This document shows, in pieces, positions 35,413 to 42,007 of a stretch of DNA of 64,000 bases (positions are counted from its first letter, which is position 1; each line of letters begins with the position of its first letter). The DNA comes from an uncultured Phascolarctobacterium sp. (lineage in GTDB: Bacteria > Bacillota > Negativicutes > Acidaminococcales > Acidaminococcaceae). Location of the stretch: assembly GCF_900544795.1 (NCBI RefSeq), contig NZ_UQWM01000001.1; one strand, given 5' to 3'. The notes beneath the pieces were generated by a model that had not been told where the DNA came from, searched no databases, and worked only from the letters and a program-made list of their open reading frames with translations. The position numbers and the translations under genes are program-made.

Positions 35413-35943
35413 TCAGCGAAGCACTTTGTCCAGCCAGTTTACTATGGCAGTTTGTCCCGACGCCGCGTCAGAACCACGGACCGCCAGTCCTTCTTTTAGC
35501 TCGGCTCCCGGGCAAACCAGTGCAATATCCTTCATACTGCGCCCCAAGCCGCTGCCCTCGTGCGTGCAGAAGGGATAGATGGTTTTGTTATGGAAATCGA
35601 ATTTTTCCAAAAAGGTCAGCACCGCCATCGGCAGCGTCCCCCACCAGATGGGATAGCCTAAAAATATCCCTTCATACTCTGCCAGCGAGGGTGGATAAAC
35701 GGCCAGCCGAGGGCGGGAACCATTACGCTGTTCCTTTTGGGCAATGGCACTCATTTCCTGATAACTGTCCGGATAAGGAATGACTGTTTCCAGCTTCACC
35801 GCCTCACAGCCAGTCTGCTGCACCAGTATCTCGGTAGCCAACTGCGTATTGCCTATGGCCAGTTCGACAGTTTTACCGCCGCTGTAATTTTCTCCGGCGC
35901 GCGAAAAATAAACGATCAGATTTTTTTCTTTATTAAAACTCAT
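35413..35943 (-). CDS. Flavodoxin-family protein
   Basis: About 176 aa. NLIVYFSRAGENYSGG FMN-binding start and PIWWGTLP motif. Start at MSFNK with RBS AAGGAG. Confidence 0.75.
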   Translation of the reverse strand: MSFNKEKNLIVYFSRAGENYSGGKTVELAIGNTQLATEILVQQTGCEAVKLETVIPYPDSYQEMSAIAQKEQRNGSRPRLAVYPPSLAEYEGIFLGYPIWWGTLPMAVLTFLEKFDFHNKTIYPFCTHEGSGLGRSMKDIALVCPGAELKEGLAVRGSDAASGQTAIVNWLDKVLR

Positions 35944-35960
35944 TTTCCTGCTCCTTTTAC

Positions 35961-35991
35961 AGCATAACACTTAAAGTTAACTCCAAGTCAA
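35961..35991 (-). promoter_or_regulatory. Second copy of the MerR-type promoter-operator, upstream of the flavodoxin gene
   Basis: Minus strand reads TTGACTTGGAGTTAACTTTAAGTGTTATGCT; 27 of 29 identical to the site at 33381..33411, same 19-bp spacing. Confidence 0.7.
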
Positions 35992-36063
35992 GAGTTCACT
36001 TGTTTTTTGTTTGTTCTCTCTATATTATATAACACTCGGAAACAGATATTTCTTAACTGCAAT

Positions 36064-36100
36064 AAAAAAAGCTTTCGAGTATACTCTCGAAAGCTTTAAC
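36064..36100 (-). terminator. Terminator after the tRNA cluster
   Basis: agctttcgag-tatact-ctcgaaagct hairpin with T7 on minus. Confidence 0.75.
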
Positions 36101-36107
36101 TGTTGAT

Positions 36108-36193
36108 TGGTGCGAGTGACAGGAATCGAACCTGCACGTCGTAAGACGCTAGATCCTAAGTCTAGTGCGTCTGCCAGTTCCGCCACACTCGCA
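36108..36193 (-). tRNA. tRNA-Leu (anticodon UAG), CCA encoded
   Basis: Long variable arm. Anticodon loop CTTAGGA. GTTCGATTC T-arm. Confidence 0.85.
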
Positions 36194-36207
36194 AACAGAC
36201 AAAAAAA

Positions 36208-36283
36208 TGGTGATCCACCCGCGACTCGAACGCGGGACACCCTGATTAAAAGTCAGGTGCTCTACCGACTGAGCTAGTGGATC
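36208..36283 (-). tRNA. tRNA-Lys (anticodon UUU), CCA encoded
   Basis: GATCCACTAGCTCAGTCGGTAGAGC...CTTTTAA anticodon loop...GTTCGAGTC. Confidence 0.85.
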
Positions 36284-36287
36284 ACAT

Positions 36288-36363
36288 TGGCTGGGGCGGC
36301 TGGACTCGAACCAACGCATGCGGGAGTCAAAGTCCCGTGCCTTACCGACTTGGCTACGCCCCA
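36288..36363 (-). tRNA. tRNA-Gln (anticodon UUG), CCA encoded
   Basis: TGGGGCGTAGCCAAGTCGGTAAGGC...CTTTGAC anticodon loop...GGTTCGAGTCC. Confidence 0.85.
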
Positions 36364-36388
36364 AGATTTGGAAATATTGGATAAATTG

Positions 36389-36466
36389 TGGGGTGACTGG
36401 AGGGGATCGAACCCTCGAAATAACGGAGCCACAATCCGCCGTGTTAACCGCTTCACCACAGCCACC
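36389..36466 (-). tRNA. tRNA-His (anticodon GUG) with encoded G-1, CCA encoded
   Basis: Extra 5' G pairing with discriminator C. Anticodon loop TTGTGGC. GGTTCGATCC T-arm. Confidence 0.85.
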
Positions 36467-36571
36467 AAATTGGCCAAACTTTATAGCTTGGCGACGAATG
36501 TTATTCTACCATAGCCACTAATCTATGTCAATCTTTTTTATAAATTTTTTTACATTTTTTTGCAGTTTTTC

Positions 36572-36952
36572 TTACTTGCAAACAGCTATAGCTTCGATTT
36601 CTACTTTTACACCTTTAGGCAGCCCGGCAACCTGCACGCAGGACCGCGCCGGCGGATTAATGGGGAACTTTTCACCGTAAATACTGTTAACCGCGCTGAA
36701 GTCTTCTAAATCGGTCAGGAATACCGTAGTTTTAACTATATCGGCAAAGGTCAGGCCCGCTTCAGTCAAAACGCCTTCCATATTCTGCAGCACTCTGATG
36801 GTCTGTGCTTCAACACCTTCGTCTACAACTTCGCCGGTTTCGGGGATCAGCGCGATCTGCCCCGACATATAGAGCATGCCGCCCACCTTGATAGCTTGAG
36901 AATAAGGGCCGATAGCGGCCGGTGCATTTTTAGTACTGATAACTTCTTTCAT
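36572..36952 (-). CDS. ridA: RidA-family reactive-intermediate (enamine/imine) deaminase
   Basis: About 126 aa, YjgF/L-PSP fold (GPYSQAIKVGGMLYMSGQIAL...). RBS GGAGG. Confidence 0.85.
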   Translation of the reverse strand: MKEVISTKNAPAAIGPYSQAIKVGGMLYMSGQIALIPETGEVVDEGVEAQTIRVLQNMEGVLTEAGLTFADIVKTTVFLTDLEDFSAVNSIYGEKFPINPPARSCVQVAGLPKGVKVEIEAIAVCK

Positions 36953-36992
36953 TTTAAAGCCTCCATTCAATGATCTTATTTAAGTTTTGCGT

Positions 36993-37901
36993 TTATTTTT
37001 TGCTGTCTGCGTCAAAATAGGCCTTCGCCCAGGCCAAAGCCGTTGGGGTCTGGGCCAGCCCGCCTTCAGCCGTTTCTTTCAGTGTACAGGGCAGACGGTC
37101 ACCGACCGCTTTCATGGCGTCGATAGCTTCGTCAGCCGGGATAAAGCTGGTGATGCCGGCCAGAGCCAGTTCAGCCGCCAGCAAAGCCTGTGCCGCCGCA
37201 CCGCCGTTACGCTTGATGCAGGGCACTTCTACCAATCCGGCAACAGGGTCGCAGACCAGGCCCAACATATTTTTAAAAACCATAGCCACTGCGTGCCCGA
37301 CCTGCTCGGGCGTACCACCCAGCACGTCTACAGCCGCACCAGCAGCCATAGCGGCGCCGCTGCCACATTCGGCCTGACAGCCACCCATAGCCCCTGACAA
37401 AGAGGCACGGTTAGCAATGACCAAGCCGATGTTACCTGCCACCACCAATGCCTCCGTCATCTGCTGAGGTTCAAGTGCATAATGTTTTTTTAAAGCCAGC
37501 AATACGCCCGGCAGTACGCCGCTGGCGCCTGCCGTTGGAGCCGCCACGATGCGGCCCATGGCTGCGTTGCACTCGCCCACTGCCATAGCGTAAGCAACGG
37601 CGTCATTGACCACGCCGCCCAGAATGTTTTTATAACCGGCTTCCTGCGGCGCTGCCTGCAATTTTTTAGCAGCGCCGCCGGTCAGACCGCTGTGCGAAGG
37701 CACGCCGGTCAAACCAAAGGCCACCGATTCTTCCATAACCTGCAGCATCGCCGCCATCTGTTCCAAAACAGCGTCTGCCGAAAGCTCCAGTTCTTCACTG
37801 CTGCGCTCCAGCAGATAGGTATGTAAAGGCACCTGCCGTACAGTAGCTTCGTCGATCCATGTTTTTAAAGAAATTTTTTCGTTGATCACGGCACACCTCA
37901 C
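36993..37901 (-). CDS. sdaAA: L-serine dehydratase (4Fe-4S dependent) alpha subunit
   Basis: 302 aa, collinear with SdaAA (catalytic subunit with Cys ligands CxxxxC...). Confidence 0.85.
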   Translation of the reverse strand: MRCAVINEKISLKTWIDEATVRQVPLHTYLLERSSEELELSADAVLEQMAAMLQVMEESVAFGLTGVPSHSGLTGGAAKKLQAAPQEAGYKNILGGVVNDAVAYAMAVGECNAAMGRIVAAPTAGASGVLPGVLLALKKHYALEPQQMTEALVVAGNIGLVIANRASLSGAMGGCQAECGSGAAMAAGAAVDVLGGTPEQVGHAVAMVFKNMLGLVCDPVAGLVEVPCIKRNGGAAAQALLAAELALAGITSFIPADEAIDAMKAVGDRLPCTLKETAEGGLAQTPTALAWAKAYFDADSKK

Positions 37902-38563
37902 AAAACATTGCGGATAAACCGCACCGACTGCATCGGTTCTAAAGCTGCAACTAAATTGACGATCGGTTCCGGCACGACCTGGTCACACTCGATGACCATG
38001 GTAGCCATTCCACCCTTATTGGCGCGGAAAACACGCATACCGGCAATGTTGATACCCGCACTGGCCAGCGCGCTGCTGACCAGCGAGATCACGCCCGGCT
38101 TGTCTTTGTGCAGGGTCAGGATCGCCGGGAAACGGCCGCTTAATTCCACAGCAGCGCCGTCGATGGAGGTAACCAGTACCTGCCCACCGCCGATAGAGGA
38201 ACCGATAACTTCGCACTGCCTGCCATCGGCCGCCGTCAATTTAAAATACACCGTATTGGGATGGGTAAGGTCGCCTAAATTGATAGTCGAAAATTCGTAT
38301 TCCAGCCCTTGCTCGGCAGCAAACTCTTTGGCCTGTGGGATGCGCGCGTCATCTGGCAACCAACCCATCAGCCCTGCCAAAAGCGCCATATCCGTACCAT
38401 GGCCGCGATAAGTCTGGGCAAAGCTGCCATGCAAAGCGATCTGCGCTTTGACAGGCCAGGCACCCAAAATGCTAATCGCCAGCAGCGATAAGCGCACAGC
38501 ACCCGCCGTATGTGAACTGGATGGCCCGATCATCACCGGGCCGATAACGTCAAATATATTCAT
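37898..38563 (-). CDS. sdaAB: L-serine dehydratase beta subunit with ACT-like domain
   Basis: 221 aa. SdaAB-type N-terminus (PSSSHTAG) and C-terminal ACT-like regulatory domain. Overlaps the sdaAA start. Confidence 0.85.
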   Translation of the reverse strand: MNIFDVIGPVMIGPSSSHTAGAVRLSLLAISILGAWPVKAQIALHGSFAQTYRGHGTDMALLAGLMGWLPDDARIPQAKEFAAEQGLEYEFSTINLGDLTHPNTVYFKLTAADGRQCEVIGSSIGGGQVLVTSIDGAAVELSGRFPAILTLHKDKPGVISLVSSALASAGINIAGMRVFRANKGGMATMVIECDQVVPEPIVNLVAALEPMQSVRFIRNVL

Positions 38564-38590
38564 ACTAACCTCGCTTTGTTCAGTACCGGC

Positions 38591-39025
38591 CTATTCCACG
38601 TTGTCTAAAGAACGATGGGCCAGCCCCACACACAATTCATTGAGATTCAACACGCCCACCGCCATATAAATAGCGACGCACAGATGCTCGCCGCAGCGGG
38701 CGATACCGATCTTGCCGCCCACATTAAACCCCAGGGCCTTGGTTTTGACCTGTTCCAGCGCCGCATGGGCAGCGCCAGCCACCGCACCGGCACCCACATG
38801 GGTATCGGAAACCAGCCCCTGCCTTTGGGCAGCGACAACTGCCCGTTCCACGATCTTAACGATGGAAGGTATAAATTCGCCGCCAAAATCCACTGCCGTC
38901 GAACGGATGCCCTGCTCGGCCAGCTCCTGCTTGACGCGCTGCTCTTCAGGCCGCGAACCAGTCACAGCTATTTTTAAGGCCGCACGGCCAATTTCGATAC
39001 TGGTGAGTTTGCTGTCGGTCATCAT
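38591..39025 (-). CDS. HutP-family RNA-binding regulatory protein homolog
   Basis: 144 aa, size and secondary-structure-like pattern of HutP (PF09021). Embedded between the transporter and sdaAB genes. Confidence 0.55.
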   Translation of the reverse strand: MMTDSKLTSIEIGRAALKIAVTGSRPEEQRVKQELAEQGIRSTAVDFGGEFIPSIVKIVERAVVAAQRQGLVSDTHVGAGAVAGAAHAALEQVKTKALGFNVGGKIGIARCGEHLCVAIYMAVGVLNLNELCVGLAHRSLDNVE

Positions 39026-39026
39026 A

Positions 39027-40448
39027 TCAAGCCTCTTCCTCTACTAATTCCGGCACTTTGATAGGAGTTTTATCGATAACGGCCACCAAAAGGAACGTCA
39101 CGATGCAGATCAGCCATTCAAAATAAATAACATGCTGCAAAACGTGTAAAGCCGGTACAAACTCCCACACCACCAGGCCCAGCAGGCCTACCAGCGTAGT
39201 ATAAAACGCACTGCTGCGGCGGCATAAGCCCGGTGCGAACACCGTAAACAAAAAGACGCAGGTCAGCGCCGTCGTCATAGACAGACCGGCGATCATGGTC
39301 TTTAAAATACCTGCCGCATTAAAGGCGAACCACAAAGTCACCAAACCAACGGCAAAAATAGTGATGCGGTTGACGGTAACAAATTTATCATCGCTGACAC
39401 CGGGATTGATGAAGCGTTTGTAAATATCCTGGCTAAACAGGGTTCCGGCACCCAAAAGGATCGTGCAGGCCGTAGAAACGTCTGCCGCCCACAAAGCCGC
39501 CAAAGTAGTACCCGAAGCTACAGGATTCAGGCTCATAACCACCTTCGGCAGCGCCATGGTAGCCGTGATATCGGGGAAGGAGACCTTAGCCACGATACCC
39601 AGCAGGGCACATAAGAAGCCGATAGGGAAAATCAAAATGCCGCCTAAAATAAAACCCTTGCGGGCAGTTTTGGCATCACGGGCACCGCATGCGATCTGTA
39701 CTGGGCCCTGGGCCGTGATAGCCTGGGTGATCATAACGATGAACCAACCAATTATAACGGCCATCGGGATACCTGCCAGCGGGTCCAGCCAATCCATATT
39801 TGTAGGCAGCTGCGCTGCAATAGCATCGATACCGCCGGCATTGCTGACAGCGGTGATACAGGAATATAAAATACCCACATAGATCAGGATAACGCTGACG
39901 ATATTAGACAGCCCGGAAGACCACAGCCCGCCGATGAGTGTGATACCGATAAAAACTACGGCGCTCACAATCATACCAGCCTTAAAACTGAAAACATCGG
40001 GCAGCAGGGCTGCTAAAATAGCGCCGCCGGCCAGATATTGCAAAGCCGTAATGACGGACATGATGATAACAAGACCCACGGCGCTGATGACGCGACCCTT
40101 CGTGTCATAATATTTCTCAAAAAATTCAGGGATAGTCGAGATCTTCATAGCGCGCAGCTTGCCTGCTGCCACCAGTCCCATCACGATAGCGCCTGCCGAC
40201 CAGGCCGCATTATACCAGCCCGCCGCCATACCTACCCGGAAAGCATTTTCAGCTACGCCGACAGTAGAGGCCGCACCTACGGCCAGCCCTGTGATGTTGA
40301 CCGCGATCAGAGCCGTACCTAACTTACGGCCGGCAAATAAATATTCAGCCGAGCCTTTATCCGCCCGCCGCTTGACATAAAAACTGATACCAAAAAGAAG
40401 CGCGATATACACGCATACGATAAATAATTGAATAGACAAATGCCACAC
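39027..40448 (-). CDS. Sodium:solute symporter family (SSS) transporter, probable serine or amino-acid uptake
   Basis: 473 aa, about 13 TM helices. SSS-type N-terminal region (SAEYLFAGRKLGTALIAVNITG). First gene of the serine operon. Start GTG at 40448 or TTG at 40439. Confidence 0.75.
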   Translation of the reverse strand: MWHLSIQLFIVCVYIALLFGISFYVKRRADKGSAEYLFAGRKLGTALIAVNITGLAVGAASTVGVAENAFRVGMAAGWYNAAWSAGAIVMGLVAAGKLRAMKISTIPEFFEKYYDTKGRVISAVGLVIIMSVITALQYLAGGAILAALLPDVFSFKAGMIVSAVVFIGITLIGGLWSSGLSNIVSVILIYVGILYSCITAVSNAGGIDAIAAQLPTNMDWLDPLAGIPMAVIIGWFIVMITQAITAQGPVQIACGARDAKTARKGFILGGILIFPIGFLCALLGIVAKVSFPDITATMALPKVVMSLNPVASGTTLAALWAADVSTACTILLGAGTLFSQDIYKRFINPGVSDDKFVTVNRITIFAVGLVTLWFAFNAAGILKTMIAGLSMTTALTCVFLFTVFAPGLCRRSSAFYTTLVGLLGLVVWEFVPALHVLQHVIYFEWLICIVTFLLVAVIDKTPIKVPELVEEEA

Positions 40449-40765
40449 TACCTTTCTACGCTGCTACATTGCTGCTTAATAAACTACCTGCGTCCCCTGG
40501 ACGCGCCTACCATACTACCCCCCTGCCCGCTTCAAATATACTACATTATATCAAGTTTCTTTGGTAAAGTGAAGTAAAACAACTTAAGAAACTGCCTGCA
40601 TCTGCTTTCCAAATCCCCTTTACAAAAGCTTTATAAAAGGCGAGCCAGGTAAAATTTTTCTTACTTGCCCGCCAACAACAAGGATTTTAGCTTTTTATGT
40701 CGAATGTAAAAAAGATTACAGAAGATTTATTCTGTCTATTTTCCTGATAAGCGAGGCTTAAAATC

Positions 40766-41011
40766 ATGTACTCTTATAAAACCAGCGGCACCTGTGCCCA
40801 GCAAATCAACTACGATATCATCGACGGCAAGATCCACAATGTGTCTTTTGTCAGCGGCTGCCCCGGCAACCTTAAAGCCATCGGTATCCTTATCGAAGGC
40901 ATGCCCGTTGAAGAAGTGGCAGCCAAGCTACGCGGTATCCGCTGCGGCAACCGCAGCACCTCCTGCGGCGACCAGCTGGCCCAGGCTTTGGAGCAGCACA
41001 TCAATAAATAA
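40766..41011 (+). CDS. TSCPD-domain (TIGR03905) four-cysteine protein
   Basis: 81 aa. VSFVSGCPGN and RSTSCGDQLA motifs characteristic of the family. Confidence 0.7.
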   Translation: MYSYKTSGTCAQQINYDIIDGKIHNVSFVSGCPGNLKAIGILIEGMPVEEVAAKLRGIRCGNRSTSCGDQLAQALEQHINK

Positions 41012-41056
41012 ACGTCAACTAAGCATGGTAAACTTGAAGGAAAGGAGTGAACTGCA

Positions 41057-42007
41057 ATGTATAAGATCCTCAAAAGCACGCCCAACGGTATTGACGAGCT
41101 GGAAATGGAACAACTGGAAAAAGGCTGCTGGATCGACATTGTCAGCCCCTCTCCCGAAGAACTGCACGAAATAGCGGACGCCACCAATATCCAACTGGAT
41201 TTTTTGACTGCCGCACTTGACGAAGAAGAAAAATCGCGTATCGAAACGGAAGACGACCAGATCCTGATCCTGGTCGATATACCATTCCTGCGCAGCAACA
41301 AAGACTATGACACTCTTCCTCTCGGCATTATCATTTCCGAAGATTTCATTGTCACCGTTTGTCTGGAACCCAACGCCGTTGTAGCCGATTTCTCGTCCTA
41401 CAACCACCGTTTTTTCAGCACCTTCAAAAAAACGCGCTTCCTGTTCCAGATCCTCTACAAATCAGCAACTCTGTATCTGAAATATATCCGTATCATTATC
41501 AAGCGGACCGATGAATTAGAGCAGCATCTGCGTAAGTCCATGGAAAATTCCGAGCTGTTCAATTTGCTGGATCTGCAGAAATCACTGACCTACTTCACCA
41601 CGTCCCTGCGCAGTAATTACATCGTGACAGAAAAACTGCTGCGGCTGCGTTCCACCAATCAGTCGGGACATTTGATCAAGCTTTATGAAGAAGATGAGGA
41701 CCTTTTGGAAGATGTCATCATCGAATACAAACAGGCTATTGAGATGGTTGAGATGTACAGCCACATTCTTAACAGCATGATGGAAGTATTCGCCTCCATC
41801 ATCAGCAACAACCTGAACTTAGTTATGAAATTCTTAGCTTCCGTAACCATTATCCTGGCCATACCGACGACCATCGGCGGCTTGTGGGGTATGAACGTGC
41901 CAGTGCCCATGGAGGGCAACGAATTCGGCTTCGTCACCATCACCTCCATCGCCCTGCTGATTTCGGTGGGTACAGGTTACTGGCTGTGGAAACGCCGTAT
42001 GTTTTAG
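41057..42007 (+). CDS. corA: CorA-family magnesium/cobalt transporter
   Basis: 316 aa. Cytoplasmic funnel domain, then two C-terminal TM helices with the GMN signature (GLWGMNVPVP). Confidence 0.85.
   Translation: MYKILKSTPNGIDELEMEQLEKGCWIDIVSPSPEELHEIADATNIQLDFLTAALDEEEKSRIETEDDQILILVDIPFLRSNKDYDTLPLGIIISEDFIVTVCLEPNAVVADFSSYNHRFFSTFKKTRFLFQILYKSATLYLKYIRIIIKRTDELEQHLRKSMENSELFNLLDLQKSLTYFTTSLRSNYIVTEKLLRLRSTNQSGHLIKLYEEDEDLLEDVIIEYKQAIEMVEMYSHILNSMMEVFASIISNNLNLVMKFLASVTIILAIPTTIGGLWGMNVPVPMEGNEFGFVTITSIALLISVGTGYWLWKRRMF

Follow-up and report, generated by a model that had tools for sequence, protein, structure and literature searches.

In this study, we examined a 64,000-nt stretch of DNA from an uncultured Phascolarctobacterium sp. 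(contig NZ_UQWM01000001.1; hereafter the window, meaning the whole stretch), which encodes on its minus strand a 144-aa protein of the HutP family. The gene lies in a group of five closely packed genes behind a single promoter-like site, and the mRNA leader ahead of them carries two clusters of G-N-A-G units (N being any nucleotide). Matches to family profiles confirmed the gene order given in a preliminary description of this DNA, namely sodium:solute symporter (SSS) transporter, HutP-family protein, sdaAB, sdaAA and ridA. The HutP-like gene starts 1 nt past the SSS stop codon, and the last 4 nt of sdaAB are shared with sdaAA (Table 1). The transporter scored under the cutoff of every NCBIfam equivalog; its start codon is probably TTG 40439, which aligns as TTG-TCT with the ATG-TCT of the orthologues, and RidA probably starts at an ATG six codons inside its open reading frame. 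As set out below, we lean towards the view that the HutP-fold protein binds the GNAG repeats of its own leader and acts there as an autogenous, ligand-modulated repressor of translation, in a manner resembling TRAP.

The preliminary description had made its proposal dependent on HutP-fold similarity of the 144-aa protein and on conservation of the UAG periodicity in orthologous leaders; both were examined and both are present. With regard to the protein, membership of the HutP family was established by a full-length match to PF09021 (Table 1), a profile that B. subtilis HutP itself matches end to end with 111 bits, and by a HutP-like predicted fold. A phmmer search of the solved structures with the 144-aa protein gave no PDB match, and the family profile matched Geobacillus HutP (4OK9) with E=0.03. 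An AlphaFold (AF2) model built on a shallow alignment reached a predicted local distance difference test (pLDDT) value of 72, its C-terminal part being weak. When this model was compared by Foldseek with the PDB, the top five matches out of 350,542 were all HutP (1VEA, 1WPV, 1WMQ, 4OK9), with probabilities of 0.97-1.0, template modelling (TM) scores of 0.42-0.52 and identities of 13-19%. This suggests, with moderate confidence, that the protein adopts the HutP alpha/beta fold.

The preliminary description had also suggested a ligand different from that of the canonical hut system. His73, His77, His138, Glu81, Arg88 and Arg98, which we take to form the L-histidine/Mg2+ pocket of HutP, reportedly owe their assignment as ligand residues to the 2005 structures of Kumarevel et al. 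The B. subtilis HutP sequence was checked against 1VEA and then aligned to the family profile, albeit weakly (E=0.002). In this weak alignment His73, His77 and Glu81 fall on Gly80, Gly84 and Ala88, and Arg88, Arg98 and Thr99 on Thr95, Phe100 and Asn101, while the Pfam end-points place His138 near Glu130. An equation of the C-terminal GLAH with the GLEH(138) of HutP was withdrawn, as the same end-points put residue 138 of the window protein near HutP residue 146. Judged from weak alignments (E = 0.03 and 0.002), the ligand residues appear unconserved and a histidine/Mg2+ pocket finds no support, which would be consistent with a different ligand. The signature that is invariant in the family consists of N-V-G-G-K (101-105), E28, E60 and H137-R138.

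The leader is about 95 nt long, and each of its two clusters keeps a strict 8-nt phase. On the mRNA strand UAG triplets start at 40543, 40517, 40509, 40486, 40466, 40458 and 40450, exactly as described before, and all seven are preceded by a G. The UAG at 40543 lies 2 nt past the -10 box and is probably not transcribed. The UAG-N5 repeats reported earlier are present but had been undercounted, as reading the sequence by the N-A-G rule lengthens both clusters in one 8-nt register. The distal site I then comprises CAG40525-UAG40517-UAG40509 and the proximal site II CAG40474-UAG40466-UAG40458-UAG40450. Site II encloses the Shine-Dalgarno (SD) sequence GAAAGG (40456..40451) and covers about -37 to -10 relative to the likely TTG start. 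The repeats had been said to overlap both the ribosome-binding site (RBS) and the start codon; since translation probably starts at TTG 40439, they cover the SD and the spacer but not the start codon. The hairpin described between the two sets of UAGs exists, its coordinates having been 1-2 nt too wide. It is not a terminator, as it has no U-tract and the terminator scan reports none there. Rfam 15 contains no family that matches the leader (window 35500-42000, E<=1; six loci, E<=0.1), and the scans returned only tRNAs and an L20 leader elsewhere. Folding of the leaders gave energies near those of shuffled sequences (z = -0.6 to -1.5), as would be the case for a protein-binding site that is largely single-stranded, and revealed no significant global structure and no conserved sequestration of the SD.

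Table 1. Features of the operon and its leader in the window, and terminators in related leaders (positions in the latter refer to the respective locus)
Feature	Position	Strand	Remarks
Promoter-like site	40573..40545	-	TTCACT, 17-nt spacer, TATAAT (40550..40545), extended -10 TG; 10/12 matches
Site I (distal)	40526..40507	-	GCAG-gggg-GUAG-uaug-GUAG; three units, 8-nt period, N-A-G reading
Hairpin between the sites	40504..40490	-	6 bp, GCGUCC-AGG-GGACGC; without U-tract
Isolated GUAG between hairpin and site II	40487..40484	-	Out of phase with both clusters; not conserved in orthologues
Site II (proximal)	40475..40448	-	GCAG-caau-GUAG-cagc-GUAG-aaag-GUAG; four units, 8-nt period, N-A-G reading
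SSS transporter	40448..39027	-	PF00474; uncharacterised subfamily
HutP-family protein, 144 aa	39025..38591	-	PF09021, 144.8 bits (gathering cutoff 25), E=2.2e-42, full length (residues 12-138 on profile 1-128)
SdaAB, L-serine dehydratase beta subunit with ACT domain	38563..37898	-	TIGR00719, 218 bits (cutoff 161)
SdaAA, L-serine dehydratase alpha subunit	37901..36993	-	TIGR00718, 297 bits (cutoff 243)
RidA-family enamine/imine deaminase	36970..36572	-	TIGR00004, 174 bits
tRNA-His, Gln, Lys, Leu cluster	36465..36108	-	Own promoter-like site 36531..36503; strong terminator 36097..36068
Terminator, L052	2262-2283		Promoter 2161-2189
Terminator, L029	3739-3761		
Terminator, L028			Seen by eye; promoter TTGACA-18-TATAAT

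Such repeats could have arisen by chance or as a by-product of a purine-rich RBS, and the density of UAG, on which the preliminary description had relied, was rejected as evidence to the contrary: in 64% of dinucleotide-preserving shuffles the window-wide maximum is at least 7 TAG per 100 nt. Likewise, three GTAG-N4-GTAG in a 64-kb window are expected with p ~0.06 when clustering is ignored; the three found in the window all lie inside 71 nt of the leader. We used the count, phase, strand and conservation of GUAG in place of UAG density. Seven GTAG per 100 nt occurred in none of 500 dinucleotide shuffles, the top value being six, in two shuffles. For the comparison, GTDB genomes were scanned, one per species, with at least 590 matches to the HutP-like protein; the best 80 loci (labelled in the manner of L001) were analysed together with the window, 813 kb in all. 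In this set, GTAG-N4-GTAG, the 8-nt period, is found 52 times on the strand coding for the HutP-like protein and three times on the other, the corresponding counts for control periods being 16 and 10 (6 nt), 9 and 0 (7 nt), 12 and 4 (9 nt) and 2 and 2 (10 nt). No fewer than 47 of the 52 lie in the 212-nt leaders, within some 200 nt ahead of the gene that opens the SSS/HutP unit, a density of 2.7/kb in leaders against 0.006/kb on the rest of the strand, or about 435-fold. Five matches away from the leaders were inspected, four to GTAG-N4-GTAG (L020:3344, L040:4943, L040:5189 and L027:4230) and a looser one to three G-N-A-G units (L032:9480); they fall in coding regions or a tRNA gene and were set aside as background, together with a further GTAG-N4-GTAG at L040:7450.

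The periodicity of the UAGs is also conserved in the leaders of the orthologues. At least one GUAG-N4-GUAG is present in 26 of the 27 SSS leaders, and a set of 24 non-redundant leaders has 62 AG-AG pairs 8 nt apart, against 18.8 +/- 4.0 in shuffled sequences (z = 10.8), while the distance of 7 nt, the period of canonical HutP, was not enriched in these leaders (22 against 18.4). In the unit logo, whose counts include leaders of close kin, G occupies -1 in 88%, U occupies 0 in 66% and A occupies +4 in 73% of the units; the A-G is invariant by the definition of the unit, whereas G-1 and A+4 were not among the selection criteria. Three in-phase NAG units were found at only about six of some 835 other predicted gene starts. 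Given the counts for strand, leader density and 8-nt period, to which the recurrence of the repeats in unalignable leaders of three orders adds, chance is a very remote explanation and effectively refuted.

The repeats recur in leaders that are otherwise unalignable between genera, in three orders of Negativicutes, always on the coding strand and at the RBS of whichever gene opens the unit with the HutP-like gene. At the place of site II, UAG-aaagg-UAG or UAG-caugg-AAG-aaagg-UAG is found in 26 of the 27 SSS leaders, and at that of site I the Phascolarctobacterium leaders have GUAG-uaugg-UAG or near variants; TATAAT boxes equivalent to that of the window are also found ahead of the orthologue leaders. 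Where the HutP-like gene stands first or alone, the repeats lie over its own SD, as in four Veillonella loci (L037, L039, L041, L046; ggUAGauuggUAGgaagg-N-AUG) and in L044, L045 and L021. In Acidaminococcus (L013-L017, L022) one UAG abuts the SD of the HutP-like gene and the upstream spacing is looser. The presence of repeats on the RBS of the regulator gene itself argues for autoregulation. A further gene may be controlled in trans: in an uncultured Acidaminococcus (L012, 9170-9235), GUAG-uaag-GAAG-gaug-GUAG lies, behind a hairpin with a U-run, on the RBS of a gene for an ATP-binding cassette (ABC) substrate-binding protein (PF04392), 3 kb from the HutP-like gene, which makes this gene a possible target. 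A UAG-N4 cluster in L030 had been considered as a variant site with a 7-nt period and was set aside, as it lies upstream of the -10 box and resembles an intergenic repeat of the ATTAGGGATTAGG type that also occurs in L055. These ATTAGG(G)ATTAGG-type repeats (L030:5790-5880; L055:6575-6750) have a 7-nt period and very high UAG counts, are partly palindromic in L055 and look like a separate intergenic element.

The gene contexts of the family bear on whether the HutP-like protein or some other molecule reads the repeats. Among the 90% clusters, 4,822 match the protein at E<=1e-5, the closest being labelled Phascolarctobacterium or Acidaminococcaceae; at 50% clustering there are 232 representatives. 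The full order SSS-HutP-SdaAB-SdaAA(-RidA) is found in Phascolarctobacterium and its allies and in one Sporomusales-like metagenome-assembled genome (L051); Pelosinus and others have SSS-HutP alone. The HutP-like gene is alone or first in Acidaminococcus, where tRNAs follow, and in Veillonella, where glycosyltransferase genes follow. In Dialister, Negativicoccus and some Veillonellaceae the order is thrS-HutP-infC, with the start of the HutP-like gene abutting the thrS stop codon (L038, L047, L049, L053, L055-L058, L060-L063, L066, L067, L070 and L074, with the HutP match at about 6001 in these loci). In Clostridia (Oscillospiraceae, Syntrophomonas; L050, L059, L064, L069, L073, L076, L078 and others) the gene follows one for an HI0933-like protein and lies upstream of cmk, plsC and an ispH-S1 fusion. 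In Veillonella (L037:11760-11872), a match to the L20 leader (RF00558), whose 51.8 bits do not reach the gathering score, is located 5.7 kb downstream from the HutP-like gene, which suggests that there, too, the gene is near infC-rpmI-rplT, with the glycosyltransferase genes inserted between. The HutP-sdaAB synteny that was to be looked for in Negativicutes thus holds for Phascolarctobacterium, its allies and L051, but on these gene orders the conserved core is the SSS-HutP pair, without sda genes, and not serine catabolism as such. A neighbour-joining tree of the HutP-like proteins tracks taxonomy, consistent with vertical descent rather than with a mobile, serine-specific paralogue.

It could be argued from the Dialister-type and the many Clostridia genes, which have housekeeping neighbours and no repeats nearby, that the repeats are a cis RNA element or the site of another factor, such as CsrA, Hfq or a ribosomal protein, and that the HutP-like gene is a mere neighbour; some Pelosinus units read AGGAUGG and so hold the GGA core of CsrA. 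However, the motif accompanies the HutP-like gene in four different gene contexts, even where that gene is alone behind its leader, and NAG repeats are the known ligand of HutP. GGA is absent from the repeats of the window, G-1 and A+4 are conserved in the units, and CsrA was rejected as the binder since GGA is unconserved in the units. A cis-acting RNA would also have to do without an Rfam match or a significant fold. We consider this explanation improbable, and binding of the leader repeats by the HutP-like protein likely.

According to the model that we favour, the 144-aa protein would bind the leader through its two clusters of GNAG units (mostly GUAG, 8 nt apart), and protein bound on site II would block access of the 30S subunit to the SD of the transporter gene. 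Translation of the SSS gene would then fall and, through tight coupling and polarity, so would that of the genes for the HutP-like protein, SdaAB/SdaAA and RidA. RNA binding would be toggled by a ligand other than L-histidine, the best guess being the substrate of the transporter and most plausibly L-serine. In the leaders of the Pelosinus type, in which an intrinsic terminator lies between the two clusters, transcription attenuation would be added. Autogenous repression is favoured because site II encloses the SD and because monocistronic orthologues carry the repeats on their own RBS; that binding represses is, in our judgement, somewhat more probable than that it does not. L-serine as the ligand in the operon of the window is a doubtful proposition, drawn from the gene neighbourhood.

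The terminators of the related leaders provide the main argument for the opposite sign of control. Leaders of the Phascolarctobacterium type have a short GC hairpin after the distal pair of units, whose stem varies while pairing is kept (GUCACC/GGUGGC, GCUCUC/GAGGGC and GCCCC/GGGGC in the near-identical L003, L005, L006, L010 and L026, read by eye, with at least two positions changed on both sides). Leaders of the Pelosinus type, which follow a consensus promoter, instead have between the clusters a complete intrinsic terminator, U-tract included, and terminators are so placed in L028, L029, L052 and L077 (Table 1). In the Clostridia-type L077 (5700-6000), GCAG-gacg-GUAG-gaug-GAAG precedes the HutP-like start by about 235 nt, and a hairpin with a U-run, similar to a terminator, comes after the repeats, which indicates that the attenuator arrangement also exists outside Negativicutes.

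With the same protein-RNA pair, the ligand-bound protein might prevent formation of the hairpin or terminator, or remodel the RBS, so that the operon would be on when its substrate is present. Canonical HutP acts positively and needs its ligand to bind RNA, catabolic operons are usually induced by their substrate, and in the Pelosinus type, L052, L029 and L077 a real terminator follows the distal repeats, so that the default looks OFF. Moreover, the spacer bases of HutP RNA face the solvent in the crystal (PMC2425495), and the SD is a spacer here. On the other hand, the window has no terminator and its hairpin lacks a U-tract. In the relatives the terminator comes before the proximal cluster, which therefore cannot influence the termination decision, and repeats right on the SD of a monocistronic regulator gene are hard to square with activation. 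We regard positive control as a possibility of lower probability, to be taken seriously nonetheless, and the two modes, repression and antitermination, may coexist.

Several points weigh against autogenous repression as we have formulated it. The link between the HutP-like protein and the RNA is drawn by analogy with HutP, and the structural model is of medium confidence (pLDDT 72, TM ~0.5 to HutP). Clusters in different leaders contain two to four in-phase units, which is compatible with the 3+3 geometry of a hexamer but not diagnostic of it. The idea of serine as the ligand derives solely from the gene neighbourhood, and the core module is SSS-HutP without sda. No GNAG repeats were found nearby in the Dialister-type thrS-HutP-infC loci or in most of the Clostridia loci among the 80, with UAG repeats upstream in only a few of the latter (L077, L078, L079); the role of the protein may not be uniform, or its targets may lie elsewhere in those genomes. 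Finally, a competing antiterminator fold was sought in the terminator leaders of the Pelosinus type and none was found, and a strong terminator of this kind fits a positive antiterminator better than a repressor.

Each face of the HutP hexamer binds one cluster of three NAG triplets, two clusters in all, and the protein acts as an activator that needs its ligand for RNA binding (PMC2425495; PMC12591593); the spacers in its RNA are sequence-independent, their bases facing the solvent in the HutP-RNA crystal (PMC2425495). B. subtilis HutP with the hut terminator RNA (1VEA, 1WPV, 1WMQ, 3BOY) belongs to the same family, PF09021, and has the same fold as predicted here, and both systems have two N-A-G clusters in a mostly single-stranded leader, a GC-rich hairpin or linker between them, and a regulator encoded in the operon that it apparently controls. 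The window protein is nevertheless very distant, with 13-19% identity, and His73, His77, Glu81, Arg88 and Arg98 are unconserved in the weak alignments. The period is 8 and not 7 nt, a G is required before the triplet, and an A is preferred at +4. The proximal cluster lies over the SD and not on the 3' side of a terminator, of which the window has none, and the regulator gene is downstream and not upstream of the sites. No hut genes (hutH, hutU, hutI, hutG) were found in the window or in any of the 80 loci. The earlier suggestion that the target differs from that of the canonical system is borne out by the RBS in place of the terminator, the lack of hut genes and the 8-nt period.

In its mode of action the proposed system resembles TRAP, which has itself been likened to HutP as a ligand-gated ring protein that acts on repeated (G/U)AG triplets (PMC2425495). 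As with TRAP (MtrB, Bacillus), some of our leaders contain an attenuator and others have sites over the SD, where ribosomes would be blocked. TRAP represses translation of trpG, trpP and ycbK besides attenuating trp transcription. It has an unrelated fold, an 11-mer beta-sandwich, and uses 11 repeats with spacers of 2-3 nt to control an anabolic regulon without being autoregulated, whereas here a PF09021 protein meets 5-nt spacers. Only the logic of RBS occlusion is common to both; TRAP is a comparison for how the system works and not a statement of family membership. A regulator gene in an operon behind the leader on which its product acts, and hence autoregulation, is also known from PyrR and BglG, in the former negative and in the latter positive. 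These proteins differ in fold, and their targets are RNA structures (a binding loop or the RAT hairpin) rather than phased triplets. Our literature search yielded no HutP-like proteins outside Bacillus and no such repeats, and a 2025 review of RNA-binding antiterminators lists HutP from Bacillus only.

Four tRNA genes lie after ridA, as noted before, but rather than being part of the operon they probably form a separate transcription unit with its own promoter-like site (Table 1), into which read-through from the operon may occur. A cluster of three to four tRNAs follows the operon both in the window and in L003 (8576-8847), and four tRNAs follow the lone HutP-like gene of an Acidaminococcus (L013, 6528-6876), which implies that the HutP-tRNA synteny predates the differences between loci in SSS and sda gene content. 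On the other side of the operon, at 40766-42007 on the plus strand, genes for a TSCPD-domain protein (PF12637) and a CorA Mg2+ transporter (PF01544) are oriented divergently, and most Phascolarctobacterium loci, as well as L051, share this pair upstream of SSS-HutP. The CorA neighbour is possibly relevant if the HutP-like protein requires a divalent ion.

HutP has been studied for decades as a histidine-dependent antiterminator of a single operon and as specific to Bacillus. The repeat architecture, its phase and strand and its co-occurrence with a HutP-like gene across lineages are observed here; what is known already is the fold and the principle of NAG repeats, and what is new is the period, the extended unit, the point of action, apparently the ligand pocket, the gene order and the phylogenetic range. 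Extended to the family as a whole, the reading that we favour becomes a more tentative one, whose chances we put slightly below even: a widespread and largely vertically inherited family of Negativicutes and many Clostridia would consist of ligand-gated proteins that read 8-nt-phased GUAG on RBSs and repress themselves and nutrient transporters in cis or trans, with attenuation in some lineages. In function, the HutP fold would then carry a TRAP-like system of its own, the second of its kind and independent of the first, with a ligand other than histidine; in Phascolarctobacterium it would gate the uptake and deamination of serine. If this is true, the HutP fold would serve a much wider range of anaerobic Firmicutes, including the abundant gut genera Phascolarctobacterium, Acidaminococcus, Veillonella and Dialister, reading another RNA code (GUAG in 8-nt phase) and acting elsewhere, at the RBS. 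The 7-nt and 8-nt variants of HutP would form a natural pair for studying how ring proteins measure the spacing of RNA, and an operator that can be searched for by sequence would become available for predicting regulons in Negativicutes, in which post-transcriptional control is almost unexplored.

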